Under the pieces are notes generated by a model. It was not told the origin of the DNA. It saw nothing but the letters and a program-made list of their open reading frames with translations, and searched no databases. The position numbers and the translations under genes were made by a program. 64,000 nucleotides of DNA from Mobula hypostoma (lineage: Eukaryota): NCBI RefSeq assembly GCF_963921235.1, contig NW_026948140.1, forward strand, positions 558,001 to 622,000. The letters run 5' to 3'. Positions 4,711 through 64,000 of the stretch are shown here, piece by piece. Every line of letters begins with the position of its first letter. Position 1 is the stretch's first letter.

Positions 4711-4714
4711 TAAA

Positions 4715-4832
4715 TACCACTGGACTGGACATGCCCAGGCATCATCCCTGAAGAAGATGGGAGAGTTTGTCATTGAAACATCGTTATAATTCACAACTGT
4801 GCCCAGCTGGAAGCCAGAGAAGAGTTTATTTA
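4715..4832 (+). mobile_element. Penelope-type 3' tail with degenerate hammerhead ribozyme motif
   Basis: ccCTGAAGAagatgg...cattGAAAcatcg core followed by a PLE-like tail. Confidence 0.5.
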
Positions 4833-4880
4833 TCCAACTAATGGTTCCCTATTCTGCTTTCAGATTTTAGAGGACAGTGG

Positions 4881-23155: not shown

Positions 23156-23164
23156 TGTAAATGA

Positions 23165-23915
23165 GACTGGGTGCTGTGTTCTGTGGGTTGTGCAGTGACT
23201 GGGAGAGTCTCCAGTTTCGCCTCTCCTGTGGATTCCTCAAGGGAAAGTGCTGTAAAAACTCAGGTGCTCTCTGTTTAGTGACCTTCTCCATTTCTTGAGC
23301 CCCTAATTTTTCATTTCTATTCCTTTAATATCTAGTTAGAGATAAGGTTAGATTTCATCCTATTTCTCCTTTTAGGATTACATTGTTTAATTGTGACTTC
23401 AGTGTTCAATCTGTTGGTTCACTGCTCTGTGGGTATAAAGTGGTAGAAGCATGGGGTTAATTTATGTTGGGGTTGGGGCCTAACTGCAGTAGTCTGTGCT
23501 AGTTTTCCTAGCTTCTTGGATTTACTTTGGCTTTTGAGGACCAGGATGATGAGAGACGTGTCACTTCTGGTTAGGATGCCCCATGTTGTCATCATCTCAT
23601 TCCCCGACTTGCCTTTATTAGGATCTTCCTCCTCATTCATCGCCATTCTGGAGTTTAAGTTAAAATGGTGGAGTTATTTCTTATGTAAAGTGTTTTGGGG
23701 TTGGGTGTCTTTTTCAGGGACTGGGTGCTGTGATCTGGGGGTTGTGCAGTAGCTCATTGAGGGGTGTTAATGGGGGGGAAGGCCCCGGGGTAGAGTTAAG
23801 TAGAGTTAGAGTTAAGGCCCGAGGGTGGAGGATTCACGGCAGAGGGAGGTGAGGTGGGGTGGCAACTGGCAAAATGGTGGTGTTATTGCTTATGGATAGT
23901 GTTTTGGGGTTGGGT
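23165..23915 (-). repeat. PLE-B 3' UTR derived repeat with HHR
   Basis: Same blocks as 13696-14818. HHR remnant at 23197-23245. Confidence 0.85.
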
Positions 23916-33985: not shown

Positions 33986-33999
33986 GGCAATAACTCCAC

Positions 34000-34305
34000 C
34001 ATCCAGAACGAGGGGTCCCAGTTTGAGGATAGAGGGGAAGCCTTTTAGGACCTAGATTAGGAAAAACTTCTTCACATAGAGAGTGGTGAATCTGTGGAAT
34101 TCTCTGCCACAGGAAACAGTTGAGGCCAGTTCATTGGCTATATTTAAGAGGGAGTTAGATACGGCCCTTGTGGCTCAAGGCATCAGGGGGTATGGAGGGA
34201 AGGCTGGTACAGGGTTCAGAGTTGGATGATCAGCAATGATCATACTGAATGGCGGTGCAGGCTCGAAGGGCCAAATGGCCTACTGCTGCACCTATTTTCT
34301 ATGTT
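34000..34305 (+). mobile_element. CR1 3' end
   Basis: RKNFFT-RVVNLWNSLP coding followed by the tail ending cctattttctatg. Copies at 41404-41705 (-), 44205-44525 (+) and 51040-51355 (-). Confidence 0.88.
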
Positions 34306-37300: not shown

Positions 37301-38335
37301 TTCGACCACTTTCTACCCACAGAGCAGTAAACCAACAGGTTGAACACTAAAATCACAATTAAACAATGTAATCCTAAATGGAGAAATAGGATGAAATCTA
37401 ATCTTAACTCTAACTAAATATTAAAGGAATAGAAATGAAAAATTAGGGGCTCAAGGAATGGAGAAGGTCACTAAACAGAGAGCACCTGAGTTTTTACAGC
37501 ACTTTCCCTTGAGGAAGCCACAGGAGAGGCGAAACTGGAGACTCTCCCAGTCACTGCACAACCCACAGATCACATCAACCAGTCTCTGAAAAAAACCCCA
37601 ACCCCAAAACACTATCCATAAGCAATAACACAACCATTTTAACTTAAACACCAGAACGGAGGTTAACGAGGAGGAAGATCCTGGAAAAGGGAAGTCGCGG
37701 ACTGAGATGATGACAACGTGGGCCAAAAACAATGTGGCAAGGTGAGGTGATACTGCATCTCCAGTACGAGATCCACAAACACAAGAGGGATACTTTGCCC
37801 ACTGGAGAAGTGAGATTAGTGGACAATTTACCTTTAACAGTTTAAACAAACAAGGCAGGCCGGTATCCCAGCAAAAGTCAGGGGCTGCAGCGGAACTGGT
37901 CAAACGGGTTTGGTCAAGCAATGCCGAGAATGGATGGGGTGGGTACAGTGGAACATTCCACGGGGGGGGGTGACACAGAAACCTACCTTTAAACAGAGAG
38001 CACCTGAGTTTTTACCGCACATTCCCTTGAGGAAGCCACAGGAGAGGCGAAACTGGGGGACTCTTCCAGTTACTGCACAACCCACAGATCACAGCACCCA
38101 GTCCCTAAAAAAAACCCCAACCCCAAAAACACTATCCATAAGCAATAACACAACCATTTTGCCAGTTGCCATCCCACCCTACCTCCCTTTGCCGTGAATC
38201 CTCCACCCCCAACTCTTAACTGTACCCCCGGGCCTTTCCCCCCACAACACTCCTCAGTGAGCTATTGCCCCACCCCAAGATCACAGTACACAGTCCCTAA
38301 AAAAAAAATCAACCCCAAAACACATAGGCAATAAC
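34306..38335 (+). repeat. PLE-B derived mosaic array (interrupted by L1 at 36355-37219)
   Basis: Permuted UTR blocks with HHR remnants at ~35113, 35809, 37503 and 38021. Confidence 0.88.
36355..37219 (-). mobile_element. 5'-truncated L1 insertion with 12-bp TSD
   Basis: Open ORF2 C-terminus (CDRC..SLTHMFWSCP). AATAAA and an A/GAA tail. CAAAGTAAATCC at both 36343-36354 and 37220-37231. Confidence 0.92.
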
Positions 38336-39575
38336 TCAAACACGAGGAATTCTGCAGATGCTGGAAATTCAAGCTACACACATCAAAATTGCTGGTGAAT
38401 GCAGCAGGCCAGGCGGCATCTCTAGGAAGAGGTACAGTCGACGTTTCGAGCCGAGCCCCTTCATCAGGACAAACTGAAGGAAGAGCTAGTAAGAGATTTG
38501 AAGCAACACTCACAACACGCTGGAGGAACTCAGCAGGTCAGCATCCGTGGAAAAGATCAGTCGATGTTTCAGGCCGGGACACTTCGTCAGGACTGGGTTT
38601 GAAAGTGGGAGGGGGAGAGGGAAATCCAAAATGATAGGACAAGACAGGAGGGGGAGGGATGAAGCCAAGAGCTGGACAGGTGATTGGCAAAAGTGATATG
38701 AGAGGATCATGGGACAGGAGGCCCAGGGAGAAGGAGAAGGGGGAGGGGCGAAAAACCCCGAGGATGGGCAAGGGGTATAATCAGAGGGACAGAGGGAGAA
38801 AAGAGAGAGAGAGAGAAAGAATGTGTGTATATAAACAAATAATGGATGAGGTACGAGGGGGAGGTGGGGCTTTAGCGGAAGTTAGAGAAGTCAATGTTCA
38901 TGCCATCAGGTTGGAGGCTACCCAGACGGAATATAAGGTGTTGTTCCTCCAACCTGACTGTGGCTTCATCTTTACAGTAGAGGATGCCGTGAACAGACAT
39001 ATCAGAATGGGAATAGGACGGGGAATTAAAATGTGTGGCCACTGGGAGATCCTGCTTTCTCTGGCGGACAGAGCGTAGCTGTTCAGCAAAATGATCTCCC
39101 AGTCTGCGTCAGGTCTCACCAATATATAGAAGGCCACATCAGGAGCACCGGATGCAGTATATCACCCCAGCCGGCTCAAAGGTGAAGTGTCACCTCAGCT
39201 GGAAGGACTGTCTGGGGCCCTGAATCACCTGTCCAGCTCTTGGCTCCATCCCTCCCCCTCCCATCTTCTCCTATCATTTTGGATCTCCCCCTCCCCCACA
39301 CACTTTCAAACCCAGTCCTGACGAAGCGTTCTGGCCCGAAACGTCAACCGATCTTTTCCACGGATGCTGCCCGACCTGCTGAGTTCCTCCAGCGTGTTGT
39401 GAGTGTTGCTTCAAATCTCTTACTAGCTCTTCCTTCAGTTTGTCCTGATGAAGGGGCTTGGCTCGAAACGTTGACTGTACCTCTTCCTAGAGATGCCGCC
39501 TGGCCTGCTGCGTTCACCAGCAATTTTGATGTGTGTAGCTTGAATTTCCAGCATCTGCAGAATTCCTCGTGTTTG
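38336..39575. mobile_element. Short PLE-A copy with inverted tail
   Basis: Minus-strand GIY-YIG and tail at 38336-39225. 39226-39575 is the inverted copy of 38336-38683. Confidence 0.88.
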
Positions 39576-41403
39576 AGTTATTGCCTATGTGTTTTGGGGT
39601 TGTTTTTTTTTAGGGACTGTGTGCTGTGATCTTGGGGTGCGGCAATAGCTCACTGAGGAGTGTTGTGGGGGGAAGGACTGGGGGTAGAGTTAAGTGTTGG
39701 GGGTGGAGGATTCACGGCAAAGGGAGGTAGGGCGGGGTGGCAACTGGCAAAATGGTTGTGTTATTGCTTATGGATAGTGTTTTTGGGGTTGGGGTTTTTT
39801 TTAGGGACTGGGTGCTGTGATCTGTGGGTTGTGCAGTAACTGGGAGAGTCTCCAGTTTCGCCTCTCCTGTGGCTTCCTCAAGGGAATGTGCGGTAAAAAC
39901 TCAGGTGCTCTCTGTTTAAAGGTAGGTTTCTGTGTCACCCCCCCCCCCGTGGAATGTTCCACCGTACCCACCCCACCCATTCTCGGCACTGCTTGACCAA
40001 ACCCGTTTGACCAGTTCTGCTGCAGCCCCTGACTTTTGCTGGGATACCGGCCTGCCTTGTTTGTTTAAACTGTTAAAGGTAAATTGTCCGCTAATCTCAC
40101 TTCTCCAGTGGGCAAAGTATCCTTCTTGTGTTTGTGGATCTCGTACTGGAGATGCAGTATCACTTCACCCTGCCACTTTGTTTTTGGCCCACATTGTCAT
40201 CATCTCAGTCCGCGACTTCCCTTTTCCAGGATCTTCCTCCTCGTTAACCTCCGTTCTGGAGTTTCTGTTAAAATGGTGGAGTTATTGTTTATGGATAGTG
40301 TTTTGGAGTTGGAGGTCCCTTTTTGGGACTGGGTACAGTGAACTGGGGGTTGTGCAGTAGCCCATTGAGGTGTATTATTGCGGGGGAGTGCCCGGGGGTA
40401 GAGTTAAGTAATGGGGGTGGAGGATTCATGTCGAAGGGAGGGGTGTGGGGTGGCAACCCGCAAAATGGTTATGTTATTGCTTATGGATAGTGTTTTGGGG
40501 TTGGGGTTTTTTTAGGGATGGGTGCTGTGATCTGGGGGTTTTAAAGGTGAATGTGAGAGTCTCCAATTTCACCTCTCCTGTGGCTTCCTCAAGGGAATGT
40601 GCTGTAAAAACTCAGGTGCTCTCTAGTCCTGACAAAGGGTCCCAGCCCGAAACGTCAACTGTACCTCTTCTTATAGATGCTGCCTGGCCTGCTGCATTCA
40701 CCAGCAATTTATATTTGTGTTGCTCTGTTTAAACATGGGTTTCTGTGTCTCCCCTCTCTGGAATGATCCACCCTATCCCCACCCCACCCATTCTCGGCAT
40801 TGCTTTACCAAACCTGTTTGTCCAGTTCCGCTGCAGCCCCTGACTGTTACTGGGATACAGGCCTGCCTTGTGTGTTTAAAATGTTAAAGGTAAATGGTCC
40901 GCTAATCTCACTTTCCTATTTATTTCCTGATCTTCTCCATTCCTTGAGCCCCTAATTTTTCATTTCTATTCCTTTAATATCTAGCTAGAGTTAAGATTAG
41001 ATTTCATCCTATTTCTCCGTTTACGATTACATTTTTAATTGTGACTTTAGTGTTCAACCTGTTGGTTCATTGCTCTGTGGGTATAAAGTGGTAGCAGCTT
41101 GTGGTTAATTGATGTTCGGGTTGGGGCCTAACCACAGTAAACTGTGCTCGTTTTCCTAGCTTCTTGGATTTACTTTGGCTTTTGAGGACCATGATGATGA
41201 GGGATGTGTCACTTCTGGTTAGGATACGAGTATGCAGTCAGTGGGGAAAATATCCCTCTAGTGTTTGTGGATCTCGTACTGGAGATGCAGTATCACTTCA
41301 CCCTGCCAACTTGCTTTTGGCCCACATTCTCATCATCTCAGTTACCGACTTGTCTTTATTTGGCCTTCCTCCTCGTTAACTGCCATTCTGGAGTTTAAGT
41401 TAA
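39576..41403 (-). repeat. PLE-B derived array, inverted orientation
   Basis: Reverse complement of the blocks at 37635-38335 and 44526-46550. Confidence 0.88.
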
Positions 41404-41724
41404 AACATAGAAAATAGGTGCAGGAGTAGGCCATTCGGCCCTTCGAGCCGGCACCGCCATTCAGTATGATCATGGCTGATCATCCAACTCTGAACCCTGT
41501 ACCAGCCTTCCCTCCATACCCCCTGATCCCTTTAGCCACAAGGGTCATATCTAACTCCCTCTAAAATATAGCCAATGAACTGGCCTCAACTGTTTCCTGT
41601 GGCAGAGAATTCCACAGATTCACCACTCTCTGTGTGAAGAAGTTTTTCCTAATCTCGGTCCTAAAAGGCTTCCCCTATATCCTCAAACTGTGACCCCTCA
41701 TTCTGGATGGTGGAGTTATTGCCT

Positions 41725-44185
41725 ACACACGTCAAGGTTGCTGGTGAATGCAGCAGGCCAGGCAGCATCTCTAGGAAGAGGTTCAGTTGACGTTTCGGGC
41801 CGAGACCCTTCGTCAGGACTAACTGAAGGAAGAGTGAGTAAGGGATTTGAAAGTGGGAGGGGGAGGGGGAGATCCAAAATGATAGGAGAAGACAGGAGGG
41901 GGAGGGATGGAGCCAAGAGCTGGACAGGTGATTGGCAAAAGGGATATGAGAGGATCACGGGACAGGAGGCCCAGGGAGAAGGAAAAGGGGGAGGGGGGAA
42001 ACCCCAAGAATGGGCAAGGGGTATAGTCAGAGGGACAGAGGGAGAAAAGAGAGAGAGTGAGAAAGAATGTGTGTATATAAATAAATAACGGATGGGTTAC
42101 GAGTGGGAGGTGGGGCATTCGCGGAAGTTAGAGAAGTCAATGTTCATGCCATCAGGTTGGAGGCAACCCAGACGGAATATAAGGTGTTGTTCCTCCAACC
42201 TGAGTGTGGCTTCATCTTTACAGTAGAGGAGGCCGTGGATAGACATATCAGAATGGAAATGGAATGTGGAATTAAAATGCGTGACCATTGGGAGATCCTG
42301 CTTTCTCTGGTGGACAGAGCGTAGCTGTTCAGAAAAATGATCTCCCAGTCTGCATCAGGTCTCGCCAATATATAGAAGGCCACATCGGGAGCACCGGACG
42401 CAGTATATCACCCCAGACGACTCACAGGTGAAGTGTCGCCTCAGCTGGAAGGACTGTCTGGGGCCCTGAATGGTGGAAAGGGAGGAAGTGTAAGGGCATG
42501 TGTAGCACTTGTTCCGCTTACAAGGATAAGTGCCAGGAGGGAGAACAGTGGAGAGGGATGGGGGGAACGAATGGACAAGGGAGTCGCGTAGGGAGCGATC
42601 CCTGTGGAAAGCGGGGATGGGGGACGGAAAGATGTGCTTAGTGGTGCGATCCCATTGGAGGTGGCGGAAGTTACGGAGAATAATATGTTGGACCCGGAGG
42701 CTGGTGGGGTGGTAGGTGAGGACCAGGGGAACCCTATTCCTAGTGGGGTGGCGGGAGGATGGAGTGAGAGCAGATGTGCGTGAAATGAGGGAGATGCGTT
42801 TGAGAGCAGAGTTGATGGTGGAGGAAGGGTAGCCCCTTTCTTTAAAAAAGGAGGACATCTCCCTCATCCTGGAATGAAAAGATTCATCCTGAGAGCAGAT
42901 GCGGCAGAGACGGAGGAATTGCGAGAAGGGGATGGCATTTTTGCAAGAGACAGGGTGAGAAGAGGAATAGCGTAGATAGCTGTGAGAGTCAGTAGGCTTA
43001 TAGTAGACATCAGTAGATAAGCTGTCTCCAGAGATAGAGACAGAAAGATCTAGAAAGGGGAGGGCGGTGTCAGAAATAGACCAGGTAAACTAGAGGGCAG
43101 GGTGAAAGTTAGAGGTAAATTTAATGAAGTCAACGAGCTCAGCATGCGTGCAGGAAGCAGCGCCAATGCAGTCGTCGATGCAGCGAAGGAAAACTGGGGG
43201 ACAGGTACCAGAATAGGTTTGGAACATAGATTGTTTCACAAAGCCAACAAAAAGGCTAGCATAGCTCGGACCCATACGGATGTCCATAGCTACACCTTTA
43301 GTTTGGAGGAAGTGGGAGGAGCCAAAGGAGAAATCATTAAGAGTAAGGACTAATTCCGCTAGACGGAGCAGAGTGGTGGTAGAGGGGAACTGATTAGGTC
43401 TGGAATCCAAAAAGAAGCGGAGAACTTTGAGACCTTCTTGATGGGGGATGGAAGTATATTGGGACTGGACATCCATGGTGAAAATAAAGCAGTGGGGGCC
43501 AGGGAACTTAAAATCATCGAAAAGTTTAAGAGCGTGTGAAGTGTCAGAAGCAACCTGATGCAGACTGGGAGATCGTTTTGCTGAACACTCACACTCTGTC
43601 CGCCAGAGAAAGCAGGATTTCCCATTGTCTATACATTTTAATTCCACATCCCATTCCCATTCTGATATGTCTATCCACAGCCTCCTCTACTGTAAAGATG
43701 AAGCCACACTCAGGTTGGAGGAACAACACCCTATCTTCCGTTTGGGTTGCCTCCAACCTGATGGCATGAACATTGACTTCTCTAATTTCTGCTAATGCCC
43801 CACCTCCCACTCGTACCCCATCCGTTATTTATTTATATACACACATTCTTTCTCTCAATCGATCTTTTCTCCCTCTGTCCCTCTGACTATACCCCTTGCC
43901 ATCCTCGGGGCTTTTTCCCCCCTCCCTCTTTTCCTTCTCCCTGGGTCTCCTGTCCCATGATCCTCTCTTATCCCTTTTGCCAATCACCCGTCCAGATCTT
44001 GGCTCCATCCCTCCCCCTCCTGTCTTCTCCTATCATTTTGGATCTCCCCCTCCCACTTTAAAATCTCTTACTAGTGCTTCCTTCAGTTAGTCCTGATGAA
44101 GGGTCTGGGCCCAAAACGTCGACTGTACCTCTTCCTAGAGATGCTGCCTGGCCTGCTGTGTTCACCAGCAACCTTGACGTGTGTA
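41725..44185 (-). mobile_element. PLE-A copy with inverted 3' segment, duplicate of 31430-33985
   Basis: ORFs 43090-43647 (RT) and 42355-42867 (CKRNKCYTC linker, VIYCVRCSRCGLLYIGET). Same inversion junction as ~33340. Confidence 0.92.
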
Positions 44186-44525
44186 GGCAATAACTCCACC
44201 ATCCAGAACGAGGGGTCACAGTACCAGAACGAGGGCTCATAGTTTGAGGATAAAGGGGAAGCCTTTTAGGACCGAGATTAGGAAAAACTTCTTCACACAG
44301 AGAGTGGTGAATCTGTGGAATTCTCTGCCACAGGAAACAGTTGAGGCCAGTTCATTGGCTATATTTTAGAGGGAGTTAGATATGACCCTTGTGGCTAAAG
44401 GGATCAGGGGGTATGGAGGGAAGGCTGGTACTGGGTTCAGAATTGGATGATCAGCCATGATCATACTGAATGGCGGTGCCACCTCGAAGGGCCGAATAGC
44501 CTACTGCTGCACCTATTTTCTATGT

Positions 44526-47500
44526 TTTAACTTAAACTCCAGAATGGCAGTTAACGAGGAGGAAGGCCAAATAAAGACAAGTCGGTAACTGAGATGATGA
44601 GAATGTGGGCCAAAAGCAAATTGGCAGGGTGAAGTGATACTGCATCTCCAGTACGAGATCCACAAAGACTAGATGGATATTTTGCCCACTGGAGAAGTGA
44701 GATTAGCAGGCAATTTACCTTTAACAGTTTAAACAAACAAGGCAGCCCGATTTCCCAGCAAAAGTCTCCAGTACGAGATCCACAAACACTGGAGGGATAT
44801 TTTCCCCACTGACTGCATACTCGTATCCTAGCCAGAAGTGACACGTCTCTCATCATCCTGGTCCTCAAAAGCCAAAGTAAATCCAAGAAGCTAGGAAAAC
44901 GAGCACAGTTTACTGTGGTTAGGCCCCAACCCGAACATCAATTAACCACAAGCTGCTACCACTTTATACCCACAGAGCAGTGAACCAACAGGTTGAACAC
45001 TAAAGTCACAATTAAAAATGTAATCGTAAATGGAGAAATAGGATGAAATCTAATTTTAACTCTAGCTAGATATTAAAGGAATAGAAATGAAAAATTAGGG
45101 GCTCAAGGAATGGAGAAGATCAGGAAATAAATAGGAAAGTGAGATTAGCGGACCATTTACCTTTAACATTTTAAACACACAAGGCAGGCCTGTATCCCAG
45201 CAACAGTCAGGGACTGCAGCGGAACTGGACAAACAGGTTTGGTAAAGCAATGCCGAGAATGGGTGAGGAGGGTAGGGTGGAACATTCCAGAGGGGGGAGA
45301 CAGACAAACCCATGTTTAACAGAGAGCATCTGAGTTTTTCCAGCACATTCCCTTGAGGAAGCCACAGGAGTCGCGAAACTGGAGACTCTCCCAGTCACTG
45401 CACAACCCCCAGATCACAGCACCCAGTCCCTAAAAATACCGCCAACTCCAGAACACTATCCATAAGCAATAACTCCACCATTTTAACTTAAACTCCAGAA
45501 TGGAGGTCAACAAGGAGGAAGATGCCTTTAAAGGCAAGTCGGGGACTGAGATGTGGGCCAAAAATAAAGTAGCAGGGTGAAGTGATACTGCATCTCCAGT
45601 ACGAGATCCACAAAGACTAGATGGACATTTTGCCCACTGGAGAAGTGAGATTAGCAGGCAATTTACCTTTAACAGTTTAAACAAACAAGGCAGCCCGATT
45701 TTCAGCAAAAGTCAGGGGCTGCTGCGGAACTGGACAAACAGGTTTGGTAAAGCAATGTCGAGAATGGGTGGGGTGGGGGATATGGTGGAACATTCCAGAG
45801 AGGGGAGACACAGAAACCCACGTTTAAACAGAGCAACACAAATATAAATTGTTGGTGAATGCAGAAGGCCAGGCAGCATCTATAAGATGAGGTACAGTTG
45901 ACGTTTCAGGCTGAGACCCTTCGTCAGGACTAGAGAGCACCTGAGTTTAAACAGAGAGCACCTGAGTTTTTATAGCACATTCCCTTGAGGAAGCCACAGG
46001 AGAGGCAAAATTGGAGACTCTCGCAGTCTCTTTTAAAACCCCCAGATCACAGCACTCAGTCCCTAAAAAAATCCCAACCCCAAAACACTATCCATAAGCA
46101 ATAAATCCACCATTTTGCAGGTTGCCACCCCACACCCCTCCCTTCGCCGTGAATCCTCCACCCCCATTACTTAACTCTACCCCTGGGCACTCCCCCCCAT
46201 AACACACCTCAATGGGCTACTGCACAACCCCCAGATCACTGTACCCAGTCCTAAAAAAGGACCTCCAACTCCAAAACACTATCCATAAACAATAACTCCA
46301 CCATTTTAACTTAAACTCCAGAATGGAGGTTAATGAGGAGGAAGATCCTGGTAAAGGGAAGTCGGGAACTGAGATGATGACAACGTGGGCCAAAAACAAA
46401 GTGGTAGGGTGCAGTGATACTGCATCTTCAGTACGAGATCCACAAGAGGAATATTTTGCCCACTGGAGAAGTGAGATTAGCAGACAATTTACCTTTAACG
46501 GTTTAAACACACAAGGCAGGCCGGTATCCCAGCAACAGTCAGGGACTGCAGCGGAACTCGACAAACAGGTTTGGTAAAGCAATGCTGAGAATGTGTGTGT
46601 GTGCGGGGCGGGACAGGGTGGAACATTCCAGAGGGGGGAGACAGACAAACTCACGTTTAAACAGAGAGCACCTGAGTTTTTACCGCACATTCCCTTGAGG
46701 AAGCCACTGGAGAGGCAGAACTGGAGACTCTCCCAGTCACTCAACAACACCCAGTCCCTAAAAAAACCCCAACCCCAAAAACACTATCCATAAGCAATAA
46801 CTCCATCATTTTGTCAGTTGCCACCCCACCTCCCTTTGCCATGAATCCTCCACCCCCATTACTTAACTCTATCCCCAAACCTTCCCCCCAATAACACCCC
46901 TCAATAAGCTACTGTACAAACCCCAGATCAGAGCACCCAGTCCCTGAAAAAAATCCCAACCCCAAAATATTATCCATAAGCAATAACTCCACCATTTTAA
47001 CTTAAACTCCAGAACGAGGGTGAACGAGGAGGAAGCTCCTAATAAAGGCAAGCTGGGGACCGAGATGATGACAACGTGGGCCAAAAACAAAGTGGCAGGG
47101 TGAAGTGGTACTGCATCTCCAGTACGAGATCCACAAACACTGGAGGGATATTTTGCACACTGACCACATACTCGCATCCTAACCAGAAGTGACACATCTC
47201 TCATCATCCTGGTCCTCAAAAGCCAAAGTAAATCCAAGAAGCTAAGAAAACTAGCACAGACTACTGCGATTAGGCCCCAACCTGAACATAAATTAACCAC
47301 ATGCATCTACCACTTTATAGCCACAGAGCAGTGAACCAACAAGTTAAACACTAAAGTCACAATTAAACAATGTAATCCTGAAAGGAGAAATAGGATGAAG
47401 TCTAATCTTAACTCTAACTAGATATTAAAGGAATACAAATGAAAAAAATCGTGGCTGAAGGAATGGAGAAGGTTACTAAACAGGGAGTACCTGAGATTTT

Positions 47501-48108
47501 ACAGCACATTCCCTTGAGGAAGCCACTGGAGATGCGAAAATGGAGACTCTCCCAGTCACTGCACAACCCCCAGATCACAGCAGTCAGTCCCTAAAAAAAC
47601 TCCCAACTATCCATAAGCAATAACTCCACCATTTTAACTTAAACACCAGAATGGAGGTTAACGAGGAGGAAGATCCTAATAAAGGCAAGTCGGGGACTGA
47701 GATGATGACAATGTGGGCCAAAAACAAAGTGGCAGGATGAAGTGATACTGCATCTCCAGTACGAGATCCACAAACACTAGATGGATATTTTGCCCACTAG
47801 TGAAGTGAGATTAGCGGACAATTTACCTCTAACAATTTAAACAACCAAGGCAGGCCTGTATCCCAGCAACAGTCAGGGGCTGCAGCGGAACTCGACAAAC
47901 AGGTTTGGTAAAGCAATGATGAGAATGTGTTGTGGGGGTAGGGTGGAACATTCCAGAGGGGGGAGACACACAAACCCATGTTTAAACAGAGAACCCCTGA
48001 GTTTTTACAGCATATTCCCTTGAAGAAGCCACAGGAGAGGCGAAACTGGAGATGCTCCCAGTCACTGCACAACCCCCAGATCACAGCACTCAGTCCCTAA
48101 AAAAACTT
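44526..48108 (+). repeat. PLE-B derived mosaic array with HHRs
   Basis: HHR remnants at ~45347, 45978, 46688, 47508 and 48014. Partly duplicates 34306-36354. Confidence 0.88.
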
Positions 48109-54105: not shown

Positions 54106-54678
54106 TTTCGTCGAGCACCTCCGCTCTATCTGTCATAACAGACAGGATCTCCCAGTAGCCACCCACCAATTCTGCTTCCCATTCCCATTCAGATATGTCC
54201 ATACATGGCCTCCTGTACTGCCATGATGAGGCTAAACTCAGATTGGAGGAGCAACACCTCATATACCGTCTAGGTAGTCTCCAGCCCTTTGGTATGAACA
54301 TAGAATTCTCCAACTTCCGGTAATTCCCTCCCCCTCCCTTCCCCTATCCCTATTTCACTCTGCCCCCTCCCCCAGCTGCCTATCACCTCCCTCATGGTTC
54401 CGCTTCCTTCTACGACCCATTGTGTTTCCCCTATTCCTTCTTCACCTTTCCTGCCTATCACCTCTCTGCTCCCCCTCCCCCACCCCTTTATCTTTCCCCT
54501 TACTGGTCTTTCACCTGGAACCTACCAGCCTTCTCCTTCCCACCCTCCCTCCACCTTCTTTATAGGGCCTCTGCCCCTTCCCTCTTCAGTCCTGACGAAG
54601 GGTTCCAGCCCAAAATGTTGACCGATCTTTTCCACGGATGCTGCCCGACCTGCTGAGTTCCTCCAGTATGTTGTGAGT
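54106..54678 (+). mobile_element. PLE-A 3' fragment with HHR
   Basis: Reverse complement of 10880-11430. HHR at ~54587-54623. Confidence 0.85.
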
Positions 54679-55401
54679 TGTTTATTCCAAAGGAAAGGAT
54701 AACCTTCTTAGTTTCCAGTTGTGGTTCTAACTTTGTCAGGATAGCAGTGGCATGGGTGAATTTGGCTCCCGGAAAGCTGTCCAACTGAACATCCTTATTA
54801 GGGCATCTTTTGATCCTGTAAATGTTCGAGTCCCCTATAACTAGTATAGGTTTAAGGGGCCTTAGTTCCCAAGTTACATTTTTCTGTTTAGAGTGAGGAT
54901 GCCTCGTTATTTGACCCTCCTGGTTGTTGCAAATAGAGGTTACCTGTCCTCTTGTTTCTCCCATGTCCTCCGACTCTCAGGCTGTGTGGTTCCCTGGGGT
55001 GGAAGACTTGCTCGGTCTTCGTGTACTGGCTCCCCTTGTCTGTATGCCCATCCGCACTGGTGTGGGGTGGGGTGCTGATTCCTCAGAGTCTAGGGTCGGA
55101 GAGGCCGTGGGGGCGGCGGGCTGGGGCTCCCCTGCTCCTAGGTTGGATTGCGTCTTCTCCGAGGGGCTCATGGGTGGGGAGGGGCTCACCTGGCGTCTTC
55201 TCTGTTCCTGTGATTGGGGCAGTGGGGCCGCATCGGCGTCGAGTGGGTTAACTAGCTCCGGCGCCCTCCCGTGGACGGCGCCGGAACTCCCACTGCACGT
55301 GCTGTTCTCAGGACCTGTTGGTCTGAGACAGTCCCGCAGCAGAACTACCGGACTCAAGTTCGTTTTACTCGTCGCCGACGGACGGGGTACAGCTTGAGCG
55401 G
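54679..55401 (-). mobile_element. PLE-B ORF1 internal fragment (linker plus SGNH N-half)
   Basis: Matches 59510-60304 apart from an internal indel. Confidence 0.92.
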
Positions 55402-55430
55402 TTAGGGTTAGGGTTAGGGTTAGGGTTAGG
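55402..55430 (+). repeat. Interstitial vertebrate telomeric repeat (TTAGGG)4-TTAGG at a PLE-B junction
   Basis: Direct read: ttagggttagggttagggttagggttagg. Confidence 0.95.
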
Positions 55431-55869
55431 ATGCGGGCAGTGGGCAAAATATCCTTCTAGTGTTTGTGGATCTCGTACTGGAGATGCAGTATCACTTTAC
55501 CCTGCCACTTTGTTTTTTGCCCACGTCAGCATCATCTCGCTCCCCACCTTTCCTTTACTGGGATCTTCCTCCTCTTCAACCTTCATTCTGGAGTTTAAGT
55601 TACAATAGTGGAGATATTGGCTATGGATAGTGTTTCGGATTTGGGGTCTTTTTTATAGGGATTGTGTGCTGTGAACTGGGGGTTGTGCGGTAGCTAATTG
55701 ACGGGTGTTGTGGGGAGGGACATGCCCGGGGGTAGAGTTAGGTAATGGAGGTTGAGGATTCACGGTGAAGGGAGGTGAGGTGGGGGTGTCCCCTGCAGTT
55801 GGGGGGAGGGCTGAAATAGGAGCCTAGCTGCTGGTGATATTGGGCGAGTTTGGCTCCTTGATGGGGTAA

Positions 55870-56492
55870 GGGCTTGGGTTTATGGGGGTGTGTAGCAGGG
55901 TTGGAGATGTTAGATTTAGGGGTAGGGCAAAGGACTATTATATAAGCCCTTTAGTGTGGTGTGATTTGGGTTATTTGGGGTGCTGTCCGGTTCAGTTGGC
56001 GTGCGCAGTCCCTTGGAAATTAGGATTAGGGTTAGTGTCAGGGCTGGGGTTAGGATGCGAGTATGCGGGCAGTGGGAATTTGGCCCCCTGCTGGGGTGAG
56101 GGTTTGGGTTTATGGGGGTGTGTAGCACGGTTGGAGGTGTTAGGTTTAGTGGTATGGCAAAGGACTATTATTGAAGCCCTTTAGTGTGGAGTGGTTTGGG
56201 TTATTTGGGGTGCTGTCCAGTTTAGTTGGGGTGCACAGTCCATTGGAAATTAGGGTTAGGATTAGTGTCAGGGCTGGGGTTAGGATGCAAGTATGCGGGC
56301 AGTGGGAATTTGGCCCCTTGCTGGGGTGAGGGTTTGGGTTTATGGGGGTGTGTAGCACGGTTGGAGGTGTTAGGTTTAGTGGTAGGGCAAAGGACTATTA
56401 TGTAAGCCCTTTAGTGTGGTGTGGTTTGGGTTATTTGGGGTGCTGTCTGGTTTAGTTGGGGTGCCCGGTCCATTGGAAATTAGGGTTAGGGT
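55870..56492. repeat. 230-bp tandem repeat (~2.7 units) within the PLE-B 3' UTR
   Basis: tatgggggtgtgtagca at 55881, 56111 and 56341. Single-copy in the 62271-63457 UTR. Confidence 0.9.
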
Positions 56493-57035
56493 TTAGTTGG
56501 GGTGTGTGGTCCTCCGGATGTTAGGATTAGGTTGGGGGGGTAGGGTTGAGGGGGGCCCGCTGGGCAGTGGGAGGTATAACTGGTGATGTGGGGTGAGTTT
56601 GCCCCTCTGGCGAGAAGAGGATCTGTGTTTATGGGGTGTGAAGATATCAGGTTTCAGGGCAGGGTCATGTGCTGGGGATGTATTCTTCCCCATGGGGGAA
56701 GCGGGGAAGTTGGGGCAAGTGCTGTGTCTGGATTAAACCGGTCGTTATGTGTCTGTTCTTCCTAGTGGTTATCTCCTGTAGCGTTATAATTCCTAGTTTT
56801 ACTCCTCTCTACTTGGGGAATTAGGTTCCGTTCTGGGGCCTAGTTGTTAGGCTCTATTTCCAAAGTAAGACGAACCTTTCCTATTTAATGGTCCCCTGTC
56901 TTAATTTGTTTCAGGGTGGGTGACTGAAGGGGATCTTCCCCTTCTTCCCTACTCTAATTTTCTCAATTTTTTTAAAATTACAGGGTGCAGTGTTGGCCCT
57001 TCGGTGAGTACATTTTATGTTGCTGGCCTGGTTTT

Positions 57036-59282
57036 TTAGCCCTCGTTCAGGCCGTTTGGGGAATGCGTCTGTAGTCTTTCAATCCATCTCCTCTCTGTTC
57101 TTTTTCTTTGGAGGTTTGACCAGTTTATGTTGGTTTCCAGGCCCAGGATTGCTAAGGAGTACATTCCATGCTCCAGGAAGTGCCTACTAACTGGTCTGTT
57201 TTGGTTTCCTCTTGTGATATTACTGAGGTGTCCTGTGAGTGTGGTTCTCAGGCTGTTGCCTGTCTCCCCTATGTATATGATATGGCATTGTTTTGCATAT
57301 ACTACATTCCGTTGTTCACAAGTTATCCCCTGCTCTATCTCAGCCCACTTTCCTGTAGCTCTGTTGTGTATGCTTTTTGAAATTCTGATGTATATGCACG
57401 CCCTGCAGTTTCCCACCTCGCAGTTTGGCGCTGTTCGTACTTTGGTACTGACTAGTATGTCTTTTAAGTTTCTACCCCTTTTGAAGGCTGAAACTATGGT
57501 GTATTGTCCCAGTGTCCCCCCTTCCTCCTTTAGATTTTCAAAGTGTGTTTTGACTGTCTTGTGGATATTCACTGCCATCCCACTGTATCCTGTTATCAAG
57601 GGTAGTTTCTGTGTTGTGTTGTCCCGTGGTCGGGGATTTGTGATACTTTTTAAAAAGTCAGATTTGATGTGTCTGAGTCTCCGTCTGCTGTAGCCCCTGT
57701 GTCTAAGTGCAGAGAAGAGGATAAGAGTGGCTTGGTGGAAGTCCTCTGCCCTGGTGCAAATGTGATGAAACCGGGTCAGCTGTCCTTTGACAATGCCTCT
57801 GAAGGTGTGTTTGGGATGGTGGCTCCCGGTGTGTAGGAGGGTGTGTGTGTCTGTGGTTTTAAAGAATACTTTGGTGGCTAGTTTCTGGCTGCCATTTTTT
57901 GGTGCTTGTTTAAATACCGTAGTGTCCAGGAAGTCAATTTTCTCCCTATCTGTTGCGGCCTTAACCTTAATGGATGGATGATGAGTGTTTAGGATTTGAA
58001 TAAATTCCTCTAATTCTACCTCTGAGTGTGTCCACACTCCCCAGATGTCATCTAGGTATCTATAGAGACACATGGGTTTCTTGGGGCACTTTGGATAAAC
58101 AGTTTCCTCCCATTTTGCCATGTGTATATTGGCATAGGCTGGAGCAAACTTCTTTCCCATCGCTGTGCCCTTGACTTGTAAGTAGAATTCATTATTGAAT
58201 TCAAAGTCATTTTTAGTTAGGCTGAGGGGAAGGAGTTCTAACAAGGCCTCGTCTGGTCTCTCTAGCTGAGGGTTCTCCCGAAGGATATCCCTCACTGCCT
58301 CTATACCCCTGTCCGTTTCTACATTGGTGTACAGGCTTTCAATGTCCATGGTGAAGAGTATGGCCTCAGGGGGCACTGACATGGAATTGACTATCCCGAC
58401 AAAGTGGTACGTGTCCTTGATGTAGCTGGAGTGTTTCTGCGATAGTGGGTTAAGGAAGGCATCAATGTATTCTGCTATCCTGTATGACTCACTGCCGCAG
58501 TCCGACACGATGGGTCTGCCGGGTGGTATTTCTCCCGGAACAGTCCATGAGTCTGGGTTCTTGTGTATTTTGGGGAGGATATAGAACTTTCTTGCTTGTG
58601 GCTGTATCCCTGTCAGGTACTCCACCTGCTTCTTCCCGAGGTATCTAGTTCTTTCTAGTTCTCGCAGAATGTTCCTGATTTCTGTGTGTGTTTCCCAGTA
58701 TATGGGTTCCTTTAGTTTAGTGTAGTGCTCCATGTTATTTAATTGCCTGCGTGCCTCAAATAGATATTGCTGTTTATCCATGATCACTATGCTGCTCCCT
58801 TTACCTGCTGGTTTGATAACAATATCCATATTTTCTCTCAACTCCTTCCGGGCTGCTCTCTCCTTCCTAGTTAGATTGGGTTTATCCTGTACCTTTGTCT
58901 CCCTCTCCATTATCTCATCCAGTGTGCTCTCAAATGGCAGGACCGCTTCTGACCTGTACCTCCTCTTGGACATCCAGTCTGAGGGTGGGGTGAAAGGGGT
59001 CTTTCTATGTTCTGTCTCCCCAAAAAAGTCAACCAGTACCACTCTCCTGTAGAACTTATCCATGCCCCCCTCAGTCTGCTCCTTATGGAGTTCTGGAGTC
59101 AGTACAAAAGTGAGGCCCCTGTTCAGAACTTTTTGCTGGGTTTCTGTAGGGATGAATGTATGGGAGAGGTTCACGACTGTCTCTCCCAGTCGTGGACCCT
59201 GCCTCTCTCGGCTTTGTCTCCACTCTAGTTTAAAGACTGCATCCACCTCTTGACTATGGTCAGGGATGTGTTCTCTGTCCAA
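57036..59282 (-). CDS. Penelope-like reverse transcriptase + GIY-YIG endonuclease (748-codon open frame, non-ATG 5' end)
   Basis: VVNLS..LNRGLTF, FYILPKIHK, GRPIVS, TMDIESLYTN, QVKGTAMG, RYLDD, CEVGNCRAC linker, NVVYA..YIGETG and NGLNE. Confidence 0.95.
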   Translation of the reverse strand: MDREHIPDHSQEVDAVFKLEWRQSRERQGPRLGETVVNLSHTFIPTETQQKVLNRGLTFVLTPELHKEQTEGGMDKFYRRVVLVDFFGETEHRKTPFTPPSDWMSKRRYRSEAVLPFESTLDEIMERETKVQDKPNLTRKERAARKELRENMDIVIKPAGKGSSIVIMDKQQYLFEARRQLNNMEHYTKLKEPIYWETHTEIRNILRELERTRYLGKKQVEYLTGIQPQARKFYILPKIHKNPDSWTVPGEIPPGRPIVSDCGSESYRIAEYIDAFLNPLSQKHSSYIKDTYHFVGIVNSMSVPPEAILFTMDIESLYTNVETDRGIEAVRDILRENPQLERPDEALLELLPLSLTKNDFEFNNEFYLQVKGTAMGKKFAPAYANIHMAKWEETVYPKCPKKPMCLYRYLDDIWGVWTHSEVELEEFIQILNTHHPSIKVKAATDREKIDFLDTTVFKQAPKNGSQKLATKVFFKTTDTHTLLHTGSHHPKHTFRGIVKGQLTRFHHICTRAEDFHQATLILFSALRHRGYSRRRLRHIKSDFLKSITNPRPRDNTTQKLPLITGYSGMAVNIHKTVKTHFENLKEEGGTLGQYTIVSAFKRGRNLKDILVSTKVRTAPNCEVGNCRACIYIRISKSIHNRATGKWAEIEQGITCEQRNVVYAKQCHIIYIGETGNSLRTTLTGHLSNITRGNQNRPVSRHFLEHGMYSLAILGLETNINWSNLQRKRTERRWIERLQTHSPNGLNEG

Positions 59283-59797
59283 TGGATGTGGTCTGTGTCT
59301 ACCTTAAACTGCCTCGTCGGGATTGCAGGGATATAATTCTTAGTTTTAATAACCTCATTTAGTTGGCCCAGGGTTGCTTGTTCTGCCTCTGTCAAACAGT
59401 GGCTAAAGTTCAGCTCTGGCACCCGGATACTGGCATTGGGAAATTTTATATGGGCCATTCTTAATAATTGCTGAAGCTGTTTAGTCGCTGTTGCTGGTTG
59501 ATGTGACCTATTGTTTATTCCAAAGGAAAGGATAACCTTCTTAGTTTCCAGTTGTGGTTCTAGCTTTGTCAGGATAGCAGTGGCATGGGTGAATTTGGCT
59601 CGCTGAAAGCTGTCCAATTGAACATCCTTATTAGGGCATCTTTTGATCCTGTAAATGTTCGAGTCCCCTATAACTAGTATAGGTTTAAGGGGCCTTAGTT
59701 CCCAAGTTACATTTTTCTGTTTAGAGTGAGGATGCCTGGTTATTTGACCCTCCTGGTTGTTGCAAATAGAGGTTACCTGTCCTCTTGTTTGTCCCAT
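59225..59797 (-). CDS. SGNH/GDSL-type esterase domain (C-terminal part of PLE-B ORF1)
   Basis: LVIGDSN (block I), SF(P/Q)(G/R)A (II), LSFGINN (III) and DHIH (V, DxxH). Confidence 0.85.
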   Translation of the reverse strand: MGQTRGQVTSICNNQEGQITRHPHSKQKNVTWELRPLKPILVIGDSNIYRIKRCPNKDVQLDSFQRAKFTHATAILTKLEPQLETKKVILSFGINNRSHQPATATKQLQQLLRMAHIKFPNASIRVPELNFSHCLTEAEQATLGQLNEVIKTKNYIPAIPTRQFKVDTDHIHWTENTSLTIVKRWMQSLN

Positions 59798-59809
59798 GTC
59801 CTCCGACTC

Positions 59810-60988
59810 TCAGGCTGTGTGGTTCCCTGGAGTGGAAGACTTGCTCGGTCTTCGTGTACTGGCTCCCCTTGTCTGTGTGCCCATCCGCACTGGTGTGGGG
59901 TGGGGTGCTGATCCCTCGGAGTCTTGAGTCGGGGAGGCCATGGGGGCGGCGGGCTGGGGCTCCCCTGCTCCTAGGTTGGATTGCATCTTCTCCGAGGGGC
60001 TCATGGGTGGGGAGGGGCTCACCTGGCGTCTTCTCTGTTCCTGTAACTGGGGCAGTGGGGCCGCATCGGCGTCGAGTGGGTTAACTTGCTCCAGCGCCCT
60101 TCCGTGCACAGTGCCGGAACTCCCACTGTAAGTGTCGGCGCTGGGAGGACTAACTAGCTCCAGCGCCCTCTCGTTGACGGTGCCGGAACTCCCACTACAC
60201 GTGTTGTTCTCAGGACCTGTTGGTCTGAGACAGTCCCGCAGCACAATTACCGGACTCAAGTTCGCTTTACTCGTCGCCGATGGACGGGGTGCAGCCTAAG
60301 CGGTCTTTTTCCGGGGCTCGGGTGTGATACGGGTCCGGTCACGTTTGACCCAGAAGCCGTCCCTGGAGGTGGAGGGTCTGTTCCCCTCTTCCTCTTGGGA
60401 TGCGGTTTCCATTGTCCGTGGGTTCATTGTGGCCGCATCCGAATTGTGGGGCCCCTCGTGGGCCCGGTCTGCCGCGGCCTGCCGTTCTGGCACAGGTCTT
60501 GAGACCAGATCAAAAATATGCTTTTGGACGTCCTCCAATTTGATTTGAAATTTTTCCTTTAAATTTCGTTTGTTCCAGATTGCGGCTTTGCTGATTGCTT
60601 CTGGTAAGCGATCAGTCAGATCCGATTCACTAAATTTTAGTTCCAATTCTTGCAGGCTGTTTTGGTAATGATCAATGAAAATGTGACGTGTTTGTTTACC
60701 CCAAGCGTCCGCATTGGCAGCAATTTTGCGAAGCGTTTCTTGGGAGTGGTTCCCCGGCTTTGTGAATTTGGTCAGTCTGTATGCCTGGGTGGTGATCCCC
60801 TTCGGTGGCCTGATCATTTGTTCCAAAACTCTTAGGTGGTGCAGAGTCTGGATTATTTTATATATTAATCTAACCGTGGTGGAAAACGAATCCCTGGGAA
60901 ACCCGGGGTTTCTGCCGGTACCACGGTAGTCTGATGCGCCATGTGCTGGCAGGCCCCCGGTCCTCTCTCTCGAATTTCTCATCCACAT
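59810..60988 (-). CDS. PLE-B ORF1 N-terminal helical domain plus Pro/Ser-rich linker (interrupted by TAG at 60296-60298)
   Basis: ORFs 60296-60988 and 59810-60259 are in frame. Sister fragments carry CAG (62256-62258) and CAA (55394-55396) at the TAG position. Confidence 0.75.
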
Positions 60989-61131
60989 CGTTAAAGTAAG
61001 ACAATAATCAGAAAACTACAGATGAAGTCCACTTAATTAATGTCCTTAGCGCTTGTTCTTCGTTTTGGGTTCCGTGATTTCGACTCCTGCGAATTGCCTT
61101 TAACGAAGCGTATTGCCTTCCATAAAGCGTA

Positions 61132-61190
61132 TTTCCCGACTGGGAGAGTCACCAGTTTCGCCTGTCTCTTTGGCTTCCTCATGGGGAATT
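61132..61190 (-). ncRNA. Type I hammerhead ribozyme motif of PLE-B
   Basis: Minus strand: uuccc-c-AUGAGGA-A-GCC(aaagagaca)GGC-GAAA-CUGG(ugacucuc)CCAG-UC|gggaa. Stems I, II and III all pair and there is a GUC cleavage triplet. The core deviates from CUGANGA. Confidence 0.75.
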
Positions 61191-61747
61191 CTGTAAAGAC
61201 TGAGGTGGTCTTCCTTTAAAATGTTCCACTCCACTCCCCGCAGCCCCCCCCACCCAAAACCGCCCACCTCCCACCTCTGTATTGTTTAACCAAACATGTT
61301 TGTCCATTCCTGCTGCAGCACCTGGCTGTTGCCGGCCCGCCCTATTTGTTAAGACTCTTAAAGGTAAATTATCCACTAATCGCGCTGCTCCTTTATATTA
61401 TTTGACCCTCCCCATTCTTTTCGCCCCTAATTTTTTATTTCTATTCCTTTAATACCTAGTTAGAGTTGAGATTAAATTGCATCCTATTTCTCCTTTTAGA
61501 ATTACGTTGTTTAATTGTGACTTAAGTGTTCAAACTGTGAATTTACTGTTCTGTGGGTAAAACGTGGCGGAAGCTTGTGCCAAATGTATGTTGGGGTTGG
61601 GGTTTAAACTCAGTAGTCTGTGCCAGTTTTCCTAGCTTCTTCGATTTACTTTGGCTTTTGAGGACCAGGATGATGAGAGACGTGTCACTTCTGGTTAGGA
61701 TGCGAGTATGCGGGCAGTGGGCAAAATATCCCTGTAGTGTTTGTGGA

Positions 61748-62263
61748 CTTGCTCGGTTCTCGTGTGCTGGCTCCCCTTGTCTGTGTGCCCATCCGCACTG
61801 GTGTGGGGTGGGGTGCTGATCCCTCAGAGTCTTGGGTCGGGGAGGCCATGGGGGCGGCGGGCTGGGGCTCCCCTGCTCCTAGGTTGGATTGCGTCTTCTC
61901 CGAGCGGCTCATGGGTGGGGAGGGGCTCACCTGGCGTCTTCTCTGTTCCTGTGGCTGGGGCAGTGGGGACACATCGGCGTCGAGTGGACGGGGCCGGAAC
62001 TCCCACTGCGGGAACTCCCTCTCGTGGACGGTGGCGGAACTCCCACTGCGCGTGTCTGCGCTGGGAGGACTAACTAGCTCCAGCGCCCTCTCGTGGACGG
62101 TGCCGGAACTCCCACTGCGGGAACTCCCTCTCGTGGACGGTGCCGGAACTCCCACTGCACGTGCTGTTCTCAGGACCTGTTGGTCTGAGACAGTCCCGCA
62201 GCACAATTACCGGACTCAAGTTCGTTTTACTCGTCGCCGATGGACGGGGTGCAGCCTGAGCGG
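61748..62263 (-). mobile_element. PLE-B ORF1 linker fragment with internal micro-duplications
   Basis: Matches 59836-60304 and ends at the same AGCGGT point as the 54679-55401 fragment. Confidence 0.9.
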
Positions 62264-62270
62264 TTAGGGG

Positions 62271-64000
62271 TTAGGATGCGAGTATGCGGGCAGTAGGCAA
62301 AATATCCCTCTAGTGTTTGTGGATCTCGTACTGGAGATGCAGTATCACTTTACCCTGCCACTTTGTTTTTTGCCCACGTCATTATCATCTCGGTCCCCAA
62401 CTTTCCTTTACTGGGATCTTCCTCCTCTTCAACCTCCATTCTGGAATTTAAGTTACAATAGTGGAGTTATTGTCTATGGATAGTGTTTTGTATTTTGGGT
62501 CTCCTTTATAGGGACTGTGTGCTGTGATCTGGGGGTTGTGCGGTAGCTAATTGAGGGGTGTTGTGGGGAGGGACATGCCCGGGGGTAGAGTTAGGTAATG
62601 GGGGTTGAGGATTCACGGCGAAGGGAGGTGGGGTGGGGTGGCAATTGGCATTGCGGGGATGGGTGTGTCCCCTGCAGTAGCCGGGAGGGCTGAAATGGGA
62701 GCCTAGCTACTGTTGATATTGGGCGAGTTTGGCCCCTTGATGGGGTAAGGGCTTGGGTTTATGGGGGTGTGTAGCAGGGTTGGAGATATTAGGTTTAGGG
62801 GTAGGGTAATGCACTGTTATATAAGCCCTTTAGTGTGGTGTGGTTTGGGTTCTTTGGGGTGCTGTCCGGTTTAGTTGGGTTGCGCGATCCCTTGGAAATT
62901 AGGGTTATGGTTTAGTTGGGGTGTGTGGTCCTCCGGATGTTAGGATTAGGTTGAGGGGGTTAGGGTTGAGGGGGGCCCGCTGGGCGGCGGGAGGTATAAC
63001 TGGTGATGTGGGGTGAGTTTGCCCCTCTGGCGAGAAGAGGTTTTGTGTTTATGGGGTGTGAAGATGTTAGGTTTCAGGGCAGGGTCATGTGCTGGGGATG
63101 TATTCTTCCACATAGGGGAAGCTGGGAAGTTGGGGCAAGTGCTGTGTCTGGATTAAACCGGTCGTTACGCGTCTGTTCTTCCTAGTGGTTAACTCCTGTA
63201 GCGTTCTAATTTCTAGTTTTACTCCTCTCTACTTGGGGAATTAGGTTCCGTTCTGGGGCCCAGTTGTTAGGCTCTATTTCCAAAGTAAGACGAACCTTTC
63301 CTATTTAATGGTCCCCTGTCTTAATTTGTTTCAGGGTGGGTGACTGAAGGGGATCTTCCCCTTGTTCCCTACTCTAATTTTCTCAATTTTTAAAAAAATT
63401 ACGGGGTGTAGTGTTGGCCCTTCGGTGAGTACATTTTATGTTGCTGGCCTGGTTTTTTAGGCCTCGTTTAGGCCGTTTGGGGAATGCGTCTGTCGTCTTT
63501 CAATCCATCTCCTCTCTGCTCTTTTTCTTTGGAGGTTTGACCAGTTTATGTTGGTTTCCAGGCCCAGGATTGCTAAGGAGTACATTCCATGCTCCAGGAA
63601 GTGCCTACTAACTGGTTTGTTTTGGTTTCCTCCTGTGATATTACTGAGGTGTCCTGTGAGTCTTGTTCTCAGGCTGTTGCCTGTCTCCCCTATGTATATG
63701 ATATGGCATTGTTTACACTGGATTGCATATACTACATTCTTTTGTTCGCAAGTTATCCTCTGCTCTATCTCAGCCCACTTCCCTGTAGCTCTGTTGCGTA
63801 TGCTTTTTGAAATTCTGATGTATATGCACGCCCTGCAGTTTCCCACCTCGCAGTTTGGCACTGTTCGTACTTTGGTACTGCTTGGTATGCCTTTTAAGTA
63901 TCTACGCCTTTTGAAGGCTGAAACTATGGTGTATTGTCCCAGTGTCCCCCCCCTTCCTCCTTTAGATTTTCAAAGTGTGTTTTGACTGTCTTGTGGATAT
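62271..64000 (-). mobile_element. Next tandem PLE-B copy: 3' UTR and GIY-YIG end, runs off the window
   Basis: ORF 63457-63861 (NVVYAIQCKQCHIIYIGETG..NGLNE). The UTR matches 55426-57036 and is preceded by TTAGGGG-TTAGG at 62264-62275. Confidence 0.93.

Follow-up and report, generated by a model that had tools for sequence, protein, structure and literature searches.

In the 64,000-nucleotide stretch of Mobula hypostoma DNA analysed here (the window), a short run of TTAGGG repeats joins two pieces of a Neptune-like Penelope element (PLE) that carries an endonuclease (EN+). We put at about one half the probability that this junction records the start of a cDNA that was primed by telomeric repeats at a conserved CCUAACC motif inside the element's RNA. 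By itself, the junction in the window is weak evidence, being a dead and duplicated relic. The weight of the argument lies instead on a clade-wide, endonuclease-linked motif and on two further junctions. In the sections of the literature that were available, telomeric-repeat starts have so far been described for nuclease-less relatives only.

The element that carries the junctions

The junctions belong to a dead EN+ Penelope element of Neptune-like type, whose site appears to be non-telomeric. That the element has an endonuclease, as the first-pass annotation had stated, was confirmed by ORF2 (57036..59303, minus strand), which encodes 755 aa with an RVT_1 match, a CX4CXXC linker and, in the same ORF, a C-terminal GIY-YIG endonuclease domain. 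PF01541 was found in most homologues at E<1e-190 among the matches listed. A CX2-5CxxC linker between RT and EN belongs to the definition of such PLEs (PMC8557442, available sections), and here it reads CEVGNCRAC. The endonuclease of copy 2 contains VVYAIQCKQCHIIYIGET as well as the CCHH motif, the latter as CKQC and two His; in the central copy, the first Cys of the inner CxxC is lost. ORF1 (59225..61015, minus strand) overlaps ORF2 in another frame and is broken by two in-frame stops. Its C-terminal GDSL/SGNH esterase-like domain gave a weak match (Lipase_GDSL_2, E=5e-4, below the curated cut-off). A hammerhead-like core (61141..61189, minus strand) was found by pattern match, with its first base changed, ~500 nt downstream (sense) of the CCTAACC motif. 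U or A replaces the first C in 9/9 pattern matches, and the Rfam search returned no hammerhead match, only matches at chance level.

Partial tandems suggest a pseudo-LTR layout of the element in the window, and its 3′ UTR is 1.2-1.6 kb long. In the central copy the 3′ UTR spans 55424..57035 (minus strand) and its sense strand is rich in CCTAA(C). To its left lies an ORF1 fragment (54678..55402, minus strand) that equals 59511-60304 minus one 70-nt internal repeat. On its own left side this fragment abuts, without TTAGGG, the 3′ end of a different repeat of Penelope/SINE type. Further on, a native motif with 55 nt of pseudo-LTR (61693..61747, minus strand) ends by a microhomology jump to ORF1, also without TTAGGG. 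A second ORF1 fragment follows (61746..62264, minus strand; equal to ~59841-60304), and then the 3′ UTR and part of the endonuclease of the next copy (62269..64000, minus strand), which runs off the window and has an intact inner CxxC. Both ORF1 pieces to the left of the junctions are short and begin at non-telomeric joins. From 54678 onward the PLE-B pieces are all oriented alike, in agreement with what had been noted for the copies from 54.7 kb, and the copies are 4-6% apart and all dead. A quick tree of 37 locus rows, 7 proteins and 2 window rows placed the element beside unnamed and fish proteins, and the named protein matches are fish RT-domain proteins (identity range of the list, 44-49%).

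Non-autonomous tandem arrays with units of 0.5-0.9 kb were also observed, at 13702-14818, 23163-23906, 29908-31359, 34304-38337, 39575-41405 and 44525-48105. These are built from the element's UTR and the hammerhead-like core, which has TTGAGGA for CTGAGGA in 8/8 matched array copies, and are retrozyme-like. At 36354-37219 one array is split by an insertion with a (GAA)n tail and an 11-nt target-site duplication, GATTTACTTTG. A ~2.1 kb array and its flanks are present as inverted copies in 33708-42001 (arms up to 1225 nt, 96%), and a C2H2 zinc-finger exon at 6184-6957 shows an 84-bp repeat in 8.7 copies.

Two junctions with the same breakpoints

Junction J1 (55400..55430, plus strand) consists of (GGTTAG)5G, with AGC before it and ATGCG after it. 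Direct reading of 55397-55435 gave AGCGG, four TTAGGG units and TTAGGATGCG, whereas intact ORF1 passes at the same point from AGCGGT into CTTTTT at 60305. The description of a 5′-truncated ORF1 fragment followed by four TTAGGG units and the native motif was therefore correct. The native motif of the element makes up the last 7 nt of J1 (55424-55430), and the GGT with which J1 begins is shared by ORF1. Junction J2 (62262..62275, plus strand), where 62259-62280 reads AGCGG-TTAGGGG-TTAGGATGCG, has exactly the same breakpoints, in the context AGC-GGTTAGG-GGTTAGG-ATGCG. The earlier claim that the repeat junction recurs at 62261-62280 thus holds for the breakpoints, but at the second junction the native 7-nt GGTTAGG is exactly doubled and no perfect hexamer is added. 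With the ORFs on the minus strand, the first cDNA strand would be the G-rich one, as had been proposed.

The array in J1 is beyond chance, with 6 TTAGGGTTAGG matches against 0.01 expected and none of 100 shuffles reaching it; TRF reported a period of 6, 5.2 copies and a score of 62. Elsewhere in the 64-kb window no perfect tandem array exceeded 2 TTAGGG units, and TTAGGG was absent from the other insertion ends examined there. Telomeric repeats are touched by 2 of the 38 breakpoint classes in the window (several of the 38 being seams of the reference used), and these two are the two sides of one junction. Healing of a truncated cDNA with TTAGGG, as had been proposed, is not supported for this site, nor is healing supported as a routine process here: one junction in the 38 classes is telomeric and the left end of the insertion is not. 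Because J1 and J2 share both breakpoints, they represent one event copied twice, as the first-pass annotation had considered, and their origin as independent events is ruled out. The three ORF1 pieces have 9, 14 and 9 private differences in 395 sites, which indicates copies of similar age and a junction copied twice at about the time of insertion. A late segmental duplication was rejected, since the J1 and J2 fragments are at least as distant from each other as from intact ORF1.

The ORF1 end AGCGGT and the CCTAACC/GGTTAGG motif share GGT. Given this 3-nt microhomology, telomeric priming and slippage cannot be told apart from the window by itself, and slippage would there be the more economical interpretation. 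Without any telomere, a deletion or an RT template jump of 1.39 kb, the length that the junction removes relative to a normal tandem, may have joined GGT to GGTTAGG by microhomology and doubled the motif (J2), and slippage may then have expanded it (J1). The clade-wide motif would in that case be a promoter element or a protein-binding site in the pseudo-LTR. The exact 7-nt doubling in J2, the shared GGT and a slippage-type 8-nt deletion in the J1 copy at ~55431, 5 nt from the junction, all fit such a course, as do the junction at 13695, which also restarts at native GGTTAG with one extra G, and the microhomology junctions described for EN+ Penelope (PMC3846280, available sections). A promoter role would agree with the copy ends at 61747, 14818 and 44765, a possible sign that transcripts start a short way upstream of the motif. 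For a hexamer dimer to reach five units while each copy diverges by ~3% would, however, be unusual. With the contigs described below taken into account, we regard this origin as possible but somewhat improbable.

The junction could also be a passive short ITS, for which telomerase would have patched a double-strand break or deletion inside a tandem element, in register with the exposed GGT, with the element itself as a bystander. For short ITSs inserted by telomerase in mammals, in-register microhomology at the break is a hallmark and the flanks are often deleted (PMC2246262, available sections); here 3 nt are in register. The far side of the junction, on the other hand, falls exactly on the conserved motif of the element and J2 is not a perfect hexamer, and a strand-specific motif in 14/15 families (from the best 80 of 123 matches) would be unaccounted for. 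We therefore consider a passive origin improbable.

The native motif in the window

Eight of the 12 copies of GGTTAGGATGCGAG in the window run on natively into ~0.5 kb more UTR, the hammerhead-like core and ORF1. GGTTAGGATGCG is likewise native, and the remaining copies of the 12 are two in a 230-bp repeat and those at J1 and J2. The CCTAACC motif is thus internal to the 3′ UTR and is not the 3′ end of the element. The observation that the telomeric repeat runs into the element's own 3′ UTR motif was right in that the motif is native, but this motif is followed in eight of the 12 copies by more UTR.

The 230-bp repeat (55849..56490, no strand assigned) is present in 2.8 copies, and a motif copy of 29 nt occurs in two of them. 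Six degenerate GTTAGG-like units stand ahead of this motif copy and may be the trace of an earlier junction of this type; as proof of a telomeric junction the hexamer-like linker was dropped as ambiguous. At 13690-13705 a truncation of ORF2 joins the UTR at native GGTTAG, and the junction was not accepted as a second telomeric addition since its GGTTAG is mostly native. The three copies that end at 61747, 14818 and 44765 do so 55-70 nt from the motif and on the same side.

For reads of 4 runs over 54600-55780 (X21 yielding 0 reads), with the junction stretch 55391-55439 excluded, summed contig depth at 55440-55519 was well above that of most of the remaining UTR; the comparison covers reads of related organisms and does not measure copy number. 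In run X1 depth was 66,000-122,000 at 55440-55519 and 700-2,600 at 55560-55780, and in run X9 it was 730-980 and 110-130, respectively, again not to be read as copy number. All loose ends among those listed came from the flanking repeat. No sequencing run contained above 0.33 of the words sought. Metagenome contigs gave 0 exact matches to the 28-nt motif, and no relative was found in viral contigs.

The motif in relatives and its link to the endonuclease

An alignment-guided scan for relatives gave 78 loci in 49 families (best 80 of 123 matches). Families for the enrichment tests were hand-picked, with L058 and L063 added as frameshifted EN+ loci and element D of contig L042 as a fragment, and the group tests leave out loci with too little 3′ flank or unclear EN status. 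Within the best 80 of 123, the sense strand of the 3′ UTR showed an enrichment of CCTAAC over 300 dinucleotide shuffles in 14/15 canonical families with a C-terminal EN, compared to 1/14 EN-minus families and 0/7 loci with the EN in the thumb. The 3′ UTR of the window copy was likewise enriched over dinucleotide shuffles, and the other PLE family in the window served as a control, with enrichment in 0/3 copies. Further controls from the best 80 of 123 gave 0-1/15 EN+ families for seven other C/A/T hexamers, 0/15 for antisense CCTAAC and 0/14 for ORF2 of EN+ families. Exact (CCCTAA)2 occurs on the sense strand in 17/49 families and on the antisense strand in 1/49, while nine hexamer classes of the same composition score 0-1 in this type of count (best 80 of 123). 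The motif is followed by an RCCWGTRCC-like box in 5/16 segments against 10/1600 shuffles (from the best 80 of 123), and the native site in the window has a looser version of this box. The single EN+ family without enrichment is that of the native UTR of L042 itself (via L044). Where a relative shows both features, the motif is upstream and 0.4-1.7 kb separate it from the hammerhead; in the window the distance is ~500 nt.

As EN+ families are kin, 14/15 does not mean 15 independent events. Judged from these sequences, the motif tracks the endonuclease and is mostly missing where the endonuclease is missing. The expectation that EN-minus relatives would carry more CCCTAA was contradicted (1/14, from the best 80 of 123). 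In the quick tree with its 37 locus rows, EN-minus families nest among EN+ ones, which suggests that the endonuclease may have been lost repeatedly.

The EN-minus two-ORF families (L019, L021, L022, L023 at 3429-5474, L027, L028, L031, L035, L036, L040, L041, L048 and L053) are nested in this way, have minimal hammerheads in most cases and mostly end in a common short acidic-then-hydrophobic C-terminal segment. In L009-L014 and L016, GIY-YIG lies ahead of the last thumb segment (RT, EN, then an RNxNxKDxLV-like tail); six of these loci form one clade (SH-aLRT 92) with no CCTAAC enrichment. A long degenerate CCTAAC run at L001:1923-2163 lies inside ORF1 coding sequence (Pro-Asn-type repeats) and was left out of the counts.

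Analogous junctions in two unrelated contigs

The unrelated contigs L042 and L023 have the same layout, namely a 3′ UTR, 8-10 perfect CCCTAA units and an EN+ element from a different family that is 5′-truncated. The L042 contig has a full EN+ element C, which is connected at its native AACCCTAACCTA motif by 8 perfect units to the 5′-truncated EN+ element D; C and D belong to different families with 43% aa identity. In L023, 10 perfect units lie between the 5′-truncated EN+ element B and an EN-minus element A; at that point the native UTR of A offers no more than TAGG. Native continuations for both contigs were seen in the same contigs and in L044. For the truncation point of D and B, no full-length twin was found among the 78 loci (best 80 of 123). 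Both joins come from public assembly contigs in which the repeat may have led to a misjoin, even if support would still have to exist for each half-adjacency.

Joining by microhomology followed by slippage leaves these perfect arrays of 8-10 units between different families unexplained, and offers no reason why the join in L042 should fall on the same motif. The contigs also bear on whether the element's own RT made the repeats by stuttering. After a template jump it would have re-read CCUAACC in the manner of telomerase, adding 6-nt (J1) or 7-nt (J2) units by realignment. The 7-nt motif can yield either unit, with an overlap of 1 nt or 0 nt, and PLE RTs have a common ancestor with TERT (PMC8557442, available sections). 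A 2-nt realignment, giving TTAGG units, would however pair better and is absent. Moreover, the element attached to the L023 array offers no template of this type: the UTR of element A has only TAGG there, and A's own RNA thus cannot have yielded this array by stuttering. It is, in our view, improbable that stuttering produced the repeats. Priming of a new copy through CCUAAC on TTAGGG, which had been proposed from the window alone, gains support from the clade-wide motif and from the arrays in L042 and L023.

A model for telomeric-repeat priming

According to the reading that we prefer, a new cDNA would start on a short TTAGGG tract abutting a 5′-truncated copy, with the tract pairing to the telomere-complementary CCUAACC inside the 3′ UTR RNA. 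The junction would have formed once, in a source locus. There the tract may have come from a telomeric array nicked by the GIY-YIG endonuclease, as the remnant of an array that two elements entered through their endonuclease, or from a DNA end extended by telomerase. Telomerase healing is one of three possible sources for the repeat. That the motif goes together with the endonuclease agrees with EN targeting of TTAGGG at least as well as with an Athena-like route by healing, and slightly favours the array remnant over a telomerase cap. The composite would then have been copied twice into an internal site by means of read-through RNA, an RT start inside ORF1 and a template jump, or else by an equally old duplication, and the number of repeats may have drifted later by slippage. 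A primed start is supported by the join falling exactly on the motif boundary. Against it stand the single independent junction in the window, the GGT microhomology that alone explains the join, the lack of an added perfect hexamer in J2, the slippage-type deletion beside J1, and the distance of 0.4-1.7 kb between motif and hammerhead, unlike in Athena/Terminons. Taken together, the data suggest that EN+ Neptune-like PLEs are likely able to start copying on telomere repeats.

A broader version, which we regard as possible but somewhat improbable, is that canonical EN+ Neptune-like PLEs target telomeric repeats. Their GIY-YIG EN would nick TTAGGG tracts in telomeres, interstitial arrays or their own UTR, the internal CCCUAA would pair with the freed G-rich end like a telomerase template, and the motif would decay when the EN is lost or moves. 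If this is true, animal genomes would have a PLE equivalent of SART/TRAS, and in it an extant intermediate step from TPRT to priming in the manner of telomerase. SART/TRAS are endonuclease-bearing insect LINEs inserted in telomeric arrays, with short repeats left between neighbours; they are APE-type non-LTR elements and not PLEs.

Reviews divide PLEs into nuclease-bearing ones inside chromosomes and nuclease-less ones that reach telomeres via telomere-complementary RNA. A motif in 14/15 nuclease-bearing families (from the best 80 of 123), together with junctions on that motif, blurs this split. The question bears on the relation between telomerase-like priming and PLE integration and on why EN-minus lineages arise recurrently inside Neptune.

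Comparison with known systems

With Neptune-like EN+ PLEs of fish the element has in common the RT, the CX2-5CxxC linker and the C-terminal GIY-YIG with an inner CxxC (PMC8557442), the esterase-like upstream ORF (PMC5408684), and probably the pseudo-LTR tandem layout with a hammerhead-like core, as far as the available sections describe them. It differs in that a (TA)n or microsatellite bias is given for those elements (PMC8557442, PMC5408684), and the available sections of both papers make no mention of reverse-complement telomeric UTR repeats or telomeric junctions in EN+ clades. Reverse-complement telomeric repeats are assigned to EN-minus PLEs only (PMC8557442, PMC6431247), a telomere-complementary 3′ structure is given for telomere-associated PLEs only (PMC6431247), and EN loss inside Neptune is reported (PMC8557442). 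The available parts of PMC4209133, PMC12602865, PMC7998251, PMC3846280 and bioRxiv 10.64898/2026.07.22.740005 hold nothing further on telomeric repeats by EN status. Our literature search, covering sources available in part, did not find telomeric repeats in EN+ Neptune elements; earlier PLE papers or Repbase notes may already mention the motif.

PAc (Poseidon of Anolis) resembles the element in that its RT starts inside the RNA at an AC-rich site and tandem RNA produced by read-through leaves ORF tails that resemble the ORF1 pieces to the left of J1 and J2, and its EN can nick the element's own pseudo-LTR (PMC11167929, available sections). It nicks AT-rich DNA, however, and its start site is not homologous to the target, whereas the model proposed here needs primer-template pairing (PMC11167929).

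The first-pass annotation had likened the tandem to the EN-minus Athena/Coprina elements, and this comparison stands in part. As in Athena, Coprina and Terminon, the RNA would contain a C-rich telomere-complementary stretch (PMC8557442, PMC6431247, PMC3846280, available sections). The head-to-tail chains of 5′-truncated copies with short telomeric repeats between them, described for these elements, may have a counterpart here in one duplicated junction in the window and one each in L042 and L023. In contrast to Athena/Coprina, the element has a GIY-YIG endonuclease, the window copies appear to lie at internal, non-telomeric sites, and the EN-minus relatives in our set (from the best 80 of 123) are mostly without the motif. 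In the available descriptions of Athena/Coprina/Terminon, moreover, the motif lies immediately downstream of the hammerhead, and here it lies 0.4-1.7 kb upstream. The element thus works partly like Athena/Coprina but is not a member of that group, as an endonuclease is present and the motif is not beside the hammerhead.
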